A stretch of 64,000 nucleotides of DNA from Planctomycetota bacterium (GCA_965228735.1 OZ245838.1:3008001-3072000); one strand, 5' to 3'. Shown: positions 56,725-58,179, counted from the stretch's first letter. Numbers and translations: made by a program. The notes: generated by a model from the letters alone, not told the origin.

Positions 56725-58179
56725 ATGACCCCGGAGATCCTCATGCGAAGTCACCTCCAGCTCTCGGCACCGGCGCTCGCCGGCCTGCTGTTCCTGCCCG
56801 CCACCCTCGCGCAGTCCGCCGACTCCCGATCGAACGGGATCGAACGACCGGAGTTCGCCGCCCCGGTGCGGCTGCAGGCCGGCAAGGAGTTCCTCGGTCA
56901 GGGGCGCCTCTACCCCTCGCCGGTCTATCACGACATGAACGGCGACGGCCGGCTCGACATCGTCGTCGGCGACCTCTGGGGCAAGCTCACGGTAGCGCTG
57001 CGCGAGCCTGGCAGCTCGCCCGCGATCGCCGGCGAGACCAAGCTCAACGGCACCGATGGCGAGGTGCTCGACTTCGCCAACTGGTGATGCATCGGCATGA
57101 GTCCACAGTTCGTGGACTTCAACGCCGACGGCCACCTGGACATCGTCGCGGGCACGTTCTCGGGCTCACCGTGGATCGCGTTCGGCACGAAGGATGGCTT
57201 CGCGCAACCGGGTATGATCCACGACCGGAGCGGCGAGCGCATCGTGCTCAACCAGTTCTGGAACTACGACACCAAGAAGTGGGACTCGACGACGCGCTGC
57301 AATCCTGCCGGCGAGGAACTCGGCAACGGCCACGGCACGTCGGCGCTCGCGTTCGATCACGACGGTGACGGCGACTTCGACCTGTTGCTCGGCGACTACG
57401 ACACGGGTCACCTGTTCCTGCGCCGCAACGAGGGCAGCAACGCCGAGCCGAAGTTCGCGACGCACAACGAGCTCGTCCGGGCCGGCGGCGAGCCGATCAA
57501 CGTCGGCAAGATGGCGACGATGCGCGCGCTCGACTGGAACGGTGACGGCCACCAGGATCTCCTGATCGGCAGCTTCGGCGACAGCTACGGCCCCGGCACG
57601 GGCGGCGGCGTCTGGCTGTTCCCCGGCGCGACCCGCGCGGACAACGGCGACGCGCAGTTCGGCGCGCCCGTGACCTTCGTCGACCCGAGCAAGAAGGACG
57701 GCAGCGGCCCCGCGCGCCCGGACACCGGGCTCTACGCCGACGCGGCCGATCACGACGGCGACGGCGACCTCGATCTGATCGTCGGCGGCTACGCGATGTG
57801 GCAGCCGAAGAAGCCCACGCTCGGGCCCGACGAGGAGCGCGAGCTGGAAGGGCTGCGGAAGGACCACGAGGAAGCTCTCGCGCGCAATCGCGAGCTCAAC
57901 CTGGCGTTCTACGCGGCGCTCGAGGAGGTCCCCGAAGCCGACAAGGCGGCGATGCGCGCGAAGCTCATCAAGGCTCAGAAGGACCAGCGCGCCGAGGTGT
58001 CGCAGAAGCTCTCGAAGATCAACGAGCGCCTGACGGAGCTCGACCCCGGCATGCAGCGGCAGGCCTTCGTGTGGCTCTACGAGAACCTCGCGGTGAGCAC
58101 GCCCGCCACGCCTGGCCCCGATGGCCAAGAACAGGGTGGCGAGCAGGGACAGGGCGGCGAGCAGGGCGGAGTGCGCTGA
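56725..58179 (+). CDS. Secreted FG-GAP/VCBS-repeat protein, predicted selenoprotein (W-U-C; TGA at 57085-57087)
   Basis: ORFs 56725-57087 and 57097-58179 are in frame: ...EVLDFANW-[TGA]-CIGMSPQFVDFNADGHLDIV.... FG-GAP repeats lie on both sides (DMNGDGRLDIV; DFNADGHLDIV, DHDGDGDFDLL, DWNGDGHQDLL, DHDGDGDLDLI). No RBS before 57097; SECIS-like hairpin follows. Start may be ATG 56743. Confidence 0.75.
57100..57118 (+). promoter_or_regulatory. Candidate bacterial SECIS hairpin (AGUCCAC-AGUUC-GUGGACU)
   Basis: Perfect 7-bp stem with a 5-nt GU-containing loop at +13 to +31 after the in-frame UGA. Confidence 0.7.

Follow-up and report, generated by a model that had tools for sequence, protein, structure and literature searches.

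Does the TGA codon that interrupts an FG-GAP repeat gene of a Planctomycetota bacterium separate two genes, record an error, or encode selenocysteine (Sec)? The gene lies on a 64,000-nucleotide stretch of DNA (GCA_965228735.1 OZ245838.1:3008001-3072000), here called the window, in which a first-pass annotation had proposed a new selenoprotein family with adjacent Sec and Cys residues. From comparisons across the family, we hold it to be very likely that the UGA of this gene is read as Sec beside a Cys. The whole reading developed below, a Sec-containing propeller whose envelope redox site would be recharged through DsbD, is one that we favor with moderate confidence.

One in-frame TGA in a predicted exported protein

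The reading frame from 56725 to 58179 on the forward strand has a sole internal stop, an in-frame TGA in the context AAC TGG TGA TGC (57079-57090; N-W-stop-C-I-G-M-S-P-Q in the peptide), and direct reading of these bases agrees with the first-pass annotation that a single TGA is followed at once by a Cys codon. The annotated read-through frame likewise stands, but its start is probably a different one: ATG 56743 is the likelier start because a Shine-Dalgarno-like GGAG precedes it (Table 1). Counted from there, the Sec position is residue 115; the alternative start at 56725 would give a product of 484 aa. The N terminus, with a hydropathy of 2.06 over 11 residues and similar counterparts in homologs, is predicted to be an export signal peptide, and the protein is predicted to be exported. 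A promoter/terminator scan found no promoter-like sites and one terminator-like site, against 1.8 expected. The adjoining downstream gene (window:58182-59561 (+)), 2 nt past the stop, codes for an exported metallopeptidase of family M64, the IgA peptidase family (76 bits in Pfam), which is not a conserved neighbor across the family loci.

Table 1. Features of the gene, in window coordinates
Feature	Position	Strand	Basis or remarks
Shine-Dalgarno-like GGAG	56733..56736	+	6 nt before ATG 56743; read directly from the sequence
Whole gene read through TGA	56743..58179	+	478 aa from the likelier start
Predicted Sec-pathway signal peptide	56743..56811	+	hydrophobic core, T-L-A cleavage site
FG-GAP DxDxDG loop, blade 1, predicted Ca2+ site	56932..56958	+	motif
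In-frame TGA, predicted selenocysteine	57085..57087	+	TGA in 164/164 stop-bearing sites; Cys in uninterrupted orthologs
Vicinal Cys codon (U-C motif)	57088..57090	+	Cys conserved after TGA
Bacterial SECIS-type hairpin (predicted)	57099..57119	+	loop AGUUC 57107-57111, 19 nt after UGA, G second in loop
FG-GAP DxDxDG loop, blade 2	57115..57141	+	motif
FG-GAP DxDxDG loop, blade 3	57355..57381	+	motif
FG-GAP DxDxDG loop, blade 4	57532..57558	+	motif
FG-GAP DxDxDG loop, blade 5	57748..57774	+	motif
Predicted three-helix insertion in last blade	57826..58041	+	AlphaFold secondary structure H339-410; alignment A1

The simplest account of the stop would be a sequencing error or a recent nonsense mutation that has left a pseudogene, for which nothing speaks beyond the stop itself. 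We found no base differences between the gene and contigs of four other studies, of which three span the whole gene, these being near-identical and flagged as possibly the source of the window DNA, and the fourth covers 57064-57347. The same TGA thus recurs in independent assemblies, which speaks against a base-call error, and relatives with as little as about 26% identity have it at that column too, among them two paralogs in the host genome. This conservation refutes both an error and a pseudogene, to which we leave practically no chance.

The interrupting codon is TGA throughout the family

A protein search returned 899 matches, the best 120 of which are all 329-354 aa long and cover 68-72% of the query, which is only the part after the stop; all 15 inspected among these 120 begin at the Met of ATG 57097. 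Such C-terminal pieces are what would be expected of two coupled genes, a 114-aa exported peptide and a protein begun at ATG 57097 under hairpin-controlled re-initiation, an alternative that we consider together with read-through by some other amino acid. The two-gene account also draws on GGTGAT (57083-57088), 8 nt upstream of ATG 57097, which is complementary to what we take to be the 3′ tail of 16S rRNA and could act as a weak ribosome site. For this reason, the two-gene account needed testing rather than dismissal, and the earlier remark that this ATG has no ribosome-binding site was overstated, while the companion remark, that the C-terminal piece lacks a signal peptide, holds (hydropathy 0.95).

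The codons at and around the stop speak against two genes. We pooled sites from loci L006-L258, removing duplicates and selecting sites by the residues after the column, and obtained 189 sites: 164 with TGA, five with TGC or TGT and 20 others, the last made up of a clade with Gly-Cys, two out-of-register UxxC variants and some matches due to chance. Wherever the column holds a stop it is TGA (164 of 164 distinct sites) and never TAA or TAG (0 each), whereas the terminal stops of the same 164 genes are divided among TGA (69), TAG (55) and TAA (24), with 16 open. The Met at +4 that would begin the second protein is present in only 78 of the 164 sites, and between TGA and +4 the amino acids are conserved while the codons change synonymously. 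A true stop with re-initiation is disfavored because the stop is always TGA, the Met is only partly conserved and the intervening codons vary synonymously. Uninterrupted Cys-Cys orthologs exist, and the cut would fall between blades 1 and 2 of a single modeled propeller. The annotated view that two separate genes are unlikely is thereby upheld by the TGA-only column, the partial Met and the Cys-Cys orthologs, and we regard two genes, or read-through by another amino acid, as very improbable. A general recoding of TGA was rejected, because the gene itself terminates at an ordinary TGA stop.

Other samplings of the family give the same picture. Among 151 genomes of the class, 66 have matches, and 86 of the 87 matches contain an internal TGA, the sole exception covering only residues 204-441. 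TGA occupies the column in 34 of 34 rows of one locus set and in 60 of 60 sites of another, the latter having gathered only stops near the column, and a further locus set has TGA in its strong matches except L104 (TGC, then Val). Weak matches to unrelated FG-GAP proteins have other residues at the column. A Cys codon directly follows TGA in 60 of 60 sites of one set and 48 of 50 of another; among the 164 pooled sites, which were selected on that Cys, it is TGC in 151 and TGT in 13. Homologs therefore have TGA or Cys-Cys at this column, the outcome that the first-pass annotation had named as support for Sec.

A hairpin downstream of the TGA resembles a bacterial SECIS

The predicted hairpin begins at the 13th base after the UGA, where it had first been placed, and its stem (57100-57106 with 57112-57118) comprises seven Watson-Crick pairs plus one G-U. 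Two of its codons, CCA and AGT, had been singled out as unusual, and both are indeed rare in the gene, where CCA encodes one Pro in 28 and AGT two Ser in 22. The hairpin has a predicted folding energy of -11.4 kcal/mol (z -3.4) and the 51-nt region around it one of -21.6 kcal/mol (z -3.8), and in each case none of 200 shuffles was as stable. The bacterial SECIS consensus as given in section 5 of PMC13188914 has a loop of 3-9 nt, a stem of 4-16 bp, a G in the first two loop positions, a spacing of 16-37 nt and an MFE <= -7.5. Checked by hand, the window hairpin lies within all of these limits, with a loop of 5, a stem of 8, the G in second position, a spacing of 19 and -11.4 kcal/mol. The loop G is outside the first two positions, one position later than in the model, in 20 of the 164 sites.

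In 75 Sec-type sites, the bases at +19 to +23, +25, +28 and +29 are invariant, and Val130 is encoded by GTG in 99% of cases, whereas the most frequent codon reaches 48-68% in the other columns with conserved Val. Across 71 distinct rows, 93.5% of stem cells are paired, against 27-43% with the partner slid, and 10 cells carry changes on both sides, against 3.6 in shuffles (0 of 500 as high), a count that is inflated by the relatedness of the rows; covariation measures based on pair counts are weaker, being equaled in 29 and 76 of 500 shuffles. In 17 of the 164 sites, G-C has replaced A-U, a compensatory change. Of the 164 TGA sites, 155 keep all five pairs of the stem, which none of the five TGC/TGT sites does. 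The cleanest control for the link between hairpin and Sec is the I-Y-x-C-I-G-S-S-P subfamily, in which peptides that are almost the same have the hairpin when the codon is TGA but not when it is TGC/TGT. By these patterns of conservation, the hairpin behaves like a SECIS.

Sec machinery accompanies the family

The host genome has selA, selB and selD matches over their cut-offs as well as a tRNA-Sec, and its selD itself has an in-frame TGA at U-x-x-K. Use of Sec is near-universal in the class, with selA in 147 of 151 genomes; in the phylum sample, selA is found in 227 of 301. Carriers of the family, counted as the union of two match sets with a TGA-bearing match excluding two genomes whose matches were all partial and C-terminal, have selA in 79 of 80 genomes, compared with 148 of 221 non-carriers (Fisher p 1e-10, which is overstated since kin are not independent), and the remaining carrier has selB. 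In the class and phylum samples together, three carriers have no selA match, and all three have selB. The Sec machinery on which the original proposal depended is thus present in the host and in carriers of the family.

The family occurs in 66 of 151 genomes sampled at class level and in about 80 of 301 at phylum level, often with several paralogs. Gene callers split these genes in two at the TGA, and databases keep the family as shortened "VCBS/FG-GAP" fragments from which the active site is missing, leaving the function invisible.

Cys-Cys orthologs suggest repeated loss of Sec

A profile search identified 10 full-length, single-stretch relatives among its best 150 matches, seven of them Cys-Cys and the others H-C, W-S and N-R, while a search from one full-length relative gave 70 full-length uninterrupted proteins, 68 of which are Cys-Cys. 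At the DNA level, TGC/TGT was seen at the column in five distinct sites. The Cys-Val form L104 comes from a genome with selA. Two distant members, L212 and L248, have U-G-S-C (UxxC) with the hairpin shifted along, and distant members without Sec (within L220-L258) carry a CxxC-like G-C-L-G-C in the same loop.

On a midpoint-rooted FastTree tree of 91 rows (60 of the 160 Sec-type rows and all 31 others), the non-Sec forms are scattered among the Sec forms, nine label changes are needed, and the Gly-Cys clade accounts for 11 rows. This arrangement suggests repeated loss of Sec in the direction from Sec to Cys, as read from a tree whose root is only a midpoint. Cys-Cys orthologs are found in the cultured planctomycetes Novipirellula aureliae, Gimesia alba and Allorhodopirellula heiligendammensis. 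Such natural orthologs, some of them fused to DsbD-α (WP_146601146.1, for example), mean that no Sec expression system is needed to test the chemistry.

A five-bladed propeller model with the predicted Sec-Cys pair in loop DA′

The only Pfam matches are FG-GAP repeats: PF13517 at 65.2 bits (cut-off 26.9) and PF01839 at 34.9 (22.1). Their DxDxDG loops are predicted to be calcium sites. We modeled residues 30-459 with AlphaFold from a 63-sequence alignment, with U modeled as C, and obtained a β-propeller with a helical insertion before the last strand (pLDDT 95.6, pTM 0.92); the insertion is short or absent in some homologs (alignment A1). From this model, we confidently predict a five-bladed FG-GAP propeller fold. 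The best structural matches are themselves five-bladed propellers, of families GH62 and GH43, with a Z of 17.4 and an rmsd of 4.1 over 274 aligned residues at 5-12% identity. Sequence-profile matches to integrin alpha-4 and CRTAC1 are weak (E 5e-7 to 6e-6), as are the integrin/CRTAC1 matches from Foldseek (TM at most 0.40), and ESM Atlas matches bear automatic FG-GAP names only.

In the model, the U-C dipeptide would fall in the loop linking strand D of blade 1 with strand A of blade 2, which is loop DA′ in the naming of PMC8023676. Judged from propeller topology rather than model coordinates, this loop would lie on the ligand face, opposite the calcium loops. Query positions 192 and 204 of alignment A1 are two further columns with Cys. 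Of the 63 sequences, 32 have a third Cys in the equivalent loop of blade 3 and 16 have another Cys 12 residues before that place, and the window protein has only this earlier one.

Candidate roles for the Sec-Cys pair

In the reading that we favor, the locus would be a single gene in which SelB binds the hairpin and Sec is inserted at the in-frame UGA, and the product would be exported as a five-bladed FG-GAP β-propeller. The Sec-Cys pair in loop DA′ would cycle between the selenol/thiol form and a vicinal Se-S ring as it reduces or isomerizes an envelope substrate, and DsbD-α, which is fused in some members and would act in trans here, would re-reduce the site. We favor an envelope redox site recharged via DsbD because of the DsbD-α fusions, the UxxC variants and a UxxC motif in a host DsbD.

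The fusions are found on both sides of the propeller. Of the 68 Cys-Cys proteins, 13 have a DsbD-α two-Cys motif, its two catalytic Cys residues invariant in all 13. Among 10 hand-picked proteins, seven score over the cut-off for Pfam DsbD_N, with the domain at one end of the protein or the other. The domain is N-terminal in both P0161 and L081, the latter a Sec gene verified in DNA. It is C-terminal in four truncated protein sequences (P0166, P0193, P0200 and P0237) that start where Sec-type pieces start. Because the fusion is found at both ends and in different subfamilies, it appears to have arisen repeatedly. In DsbD itself, the N-terminal domain (nDsbD) uses its Cys103-Cys109 pair to transfer reductant to partners in the periplasm (PMC3137068).

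Several observations weigh against this redox reading. The nDsbD partners described in PMC3137068 have thioredoxin folds and are not propellers, the window protein has no DsbD domain, and only one Sec-type gene among 222 loci carries the fusion (L081). Some relatives do without one or both of the residues (H-C, W-S, N-R, the C-V form L104 and the G-C clade). Neighborhood clustering revealed no conserved operon, and gene context gives no pathway because no neighbor family recurs in more than 6 of the 222 loci. Two family paralogs stand in tandem at L057, L060 and L013, and at L057 and L060 a neighboring protein has a DsbD-α-like two-Cys motif.

A binding or carbohydrate-active role is one alternative for a selenoprotein of this kind, and one that we consider unlikely. 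The Se-S ring would then serve as a stable platform or redox gate in the sugar pocket of a VCBS propeller. The position of W-U-C suits this idea, since loop DA′ forms the sugar pocket in tachylectin-2 and PVL, where it carries a GW motif (PMC8023676), and aromatic residues are conserved in the equivalent loops (Y63, W120, W179, Y337, Y356 and W359). The best fold matches are the glycosidase families GH62 and GH43, and a GH43 arabinanase with a vicinal disulfide is described in PMC8960804. Identity to these glycosidases is only 5-12%, however, with no GH Pfam match, and a fixed ring would leave the costly retention of Sec, the DsbD-α fusions and the UxxC variants unexplained. Sulfatase-like genes lie near family genes in 6-8 loci, but sulfatases are abundant in planctomycete genomes (PMC4807772), which makes their nearness weak evidence.

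Alternatively, the Sec-Cys pair might be kept reduced by DsbD and, in the envelope, bind or transfer a soft metal or metalloid (Cu, Hg or As), a role that we judge quite improbable. Here the parallels are the C-U and U-C dipeptides of SaoL, SaoC, HgcA, MbdU and CopZ-family forms (PMC13188914, Table 1) and the third Cys in the blade-3 equivalent loop. A host paralog is moreover fused to a methyltransferase whose best match, below cut-off, is an arsenite methyltransferase, but that match is generic, scoring 58 bits where the cut-off is 263. No metal-resistance neighbors recur among the 222 loci, and adjacent cysteines are usually not conducive to metal binding, according to PMC8960804. The DsbD-α fusions, too, would favor a redox over a metal role.

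Other Sec candidates in the host genome

A codon-model scan of the host genome gave 93 TGA sites with coding-like flanks, about 20 of which have textbook Sec motifs as judged by eye. A genome-wide scan for TGA with a stem-constrained loop gave 22 matches, among them the three family paralogs, while a loose scan for TGA with the loop sequence was swamped by chance matches. One family paralog (G000:C1:405960-408038 (-), L267) has its hairpin 19 nt after the TGA and bears an N-terminal in-frame fusion to a signal peptide and a SAM methyltransferase-like domain; a second (G000:C1:5871484-5872629 (-), L268) has U-C with the hairpin again 19 nt after the TGA.

Beyond the family, a candidate exported selenoprotein (G000:C1:5150271-5152226 (+), L261:372-2327) combines W-L-U-M-C and a hairpin with a C-terminal DsbD_N that retains both Cys residues, and has no NCBIfam match. 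A host DsbD-like protein (G000:C1:4263182-4265728 (-), L266) contains two DsbD-α-like repeats and a UxxC in its thioredoxin-like C-terminal domain. A small exported protein (G000:C1:1929-2543 (-), L262), also with no NCBIfam match, has two in-frame TGA codons in two similar repeats that resemble heavy-metal domains, making it a candidate double selenoprotein. Further read-through candidates lie on G000:C1 at 4855623 (-), 5497385 (+), 4375233 (+) and 7077822 (+), with the motifs CxU, UxxL, UxxC and one that is unclear; the first three have no NCBIfam match. A frame with FG-GAP and ASPIC/UnbV domains (G000:C1:5457255-5460275 (+)) has a TGA after a Cys (C-U) and a hairpin; it is probably of the kind listed in the S9 Table of PMC4807772, and this C-U kind is absent from the 2026 catalogue (PMC13188914, Table 1).

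On a still wider view, Sec would be the original residue of a large and overlooked family of exported redox propellers, which would be clients of DsbD-α outside the thioredoxin fold and a node in a selenium-based reducing network of the planctomycete envelope, one that takes in the roughly 20 host Sec candidates, including DsbD. We regard the case for this combined picture as evenly balanced.

Comparison with known systems

Most catalogued selenoprotein families are thioredoxin-fold proteins or cofactor enzymes (PMC13188914, Table 1). The 119 families in the whole of that table include none of FG-GAP, VCBS or propeller type, although the motifs GxUC and CU occur there in other families. In NCBIfam 20.0, no model scores over its cut-off: the window protein finds only XAC2610, below cut-off, and three Cys-Cys orthologs and one paralog have no match. 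The text and supplement of BSepDB and the main text of deep-Sep contain no VCBS, FG-GAP or propeller terms, and literature searches returned no description of the family, with Haft and Tolstoy 2025 (PMC12013261) covered only via the families cited in Table 1 of PMC13188914. The first-pass view that the family is undescribed agrees with its absence from that table and from NCBIfam but needs one qualification, in that a 2016 list already gave a hint of Sec in a protein with FG-GAP repeats: the S9 Table of PMC4807772 holds four Sec candidates labeled "ASPIC UnbV; FG-Gap repeat," aligned to Gly.

Like the window gene, these candidates are planctomycete FG-GAP-repeat genes split by an in-frame UGA, with a SECIS called in three of the four (PMC4807772, S9 Table). 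They differ in having an ASPIC/UnbV domain and Gly in the closest match, whereas the window protein is without ASPIC/UnbV and aligns to Cys. Both their description and a look-alike in the host genome would set the 2016 candidates apart, and they probably form a different, second family. The look-alike is the ASPIC/UnbV frame with C-U noted above, of 1006 codons, which has only repeat-level similarity to the window protein (blastp E 0.01 or worse). Membership of the window protein in the ASPIC/UnbV family was rejected, since it has no PF07593 match and none of the five PF07593 matches in the host genome is at this locus.

The FG-GAP propeller scaffold is known for adhesion and sugar binding. 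With the VCBS/FG-GAP propellers of integrin alpha, CRTAC1, ITFG2 and the PVL lectin (PMC8023676), the window protein shares DxDxDG loops, a signal peptide, PF13517 and PF01839. Integrins and PVL have seven blades, in contrast to the predicted five blades, helical insertion and Sec-Cys in loop DA′ of the window protein. The five-bladed fold is shared with GH62, GH43 and GH32 (Z as high as 17.4, with an rmsd near 4 over about 270 residues). Membership in these glycosidase families was rejected, given the lack of a GH Pfam match and the low identity in structural matches.

Vicinal pairs of this type are familiar from the C terminus of mammalian thioredoxin reductase, which holds a Cys-Sec redox site, and from PQQ methanol dehydrogenase, which has a vicinal disulfide ring within a periplasmic propeller. 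The window protein differs from such Cys-Cys and Cys-Sec sites in its order (U-C), its internal position and its five-bladed FG-GAP scaffold with no cofactor known. Like the Cys-Cys site of RexT (PMC8960804), it has adjacent chalcogen residues able to form an eight-membered ring. In its in-frame UGA, a hairpin that fits all constraints, its Cys orthologs and the selA/B/C/D of its host, the gene resembles other bacterial selenoprotein genes that contain a bSECIS. It is very likely a selenoprotein gene, of an uncatalogued and widespread Planctomycetota family in which a known recoding mechanism would serve a new scaffold in a new location, adding a fold and a cellular compartment to the bacterial selenoproteome.
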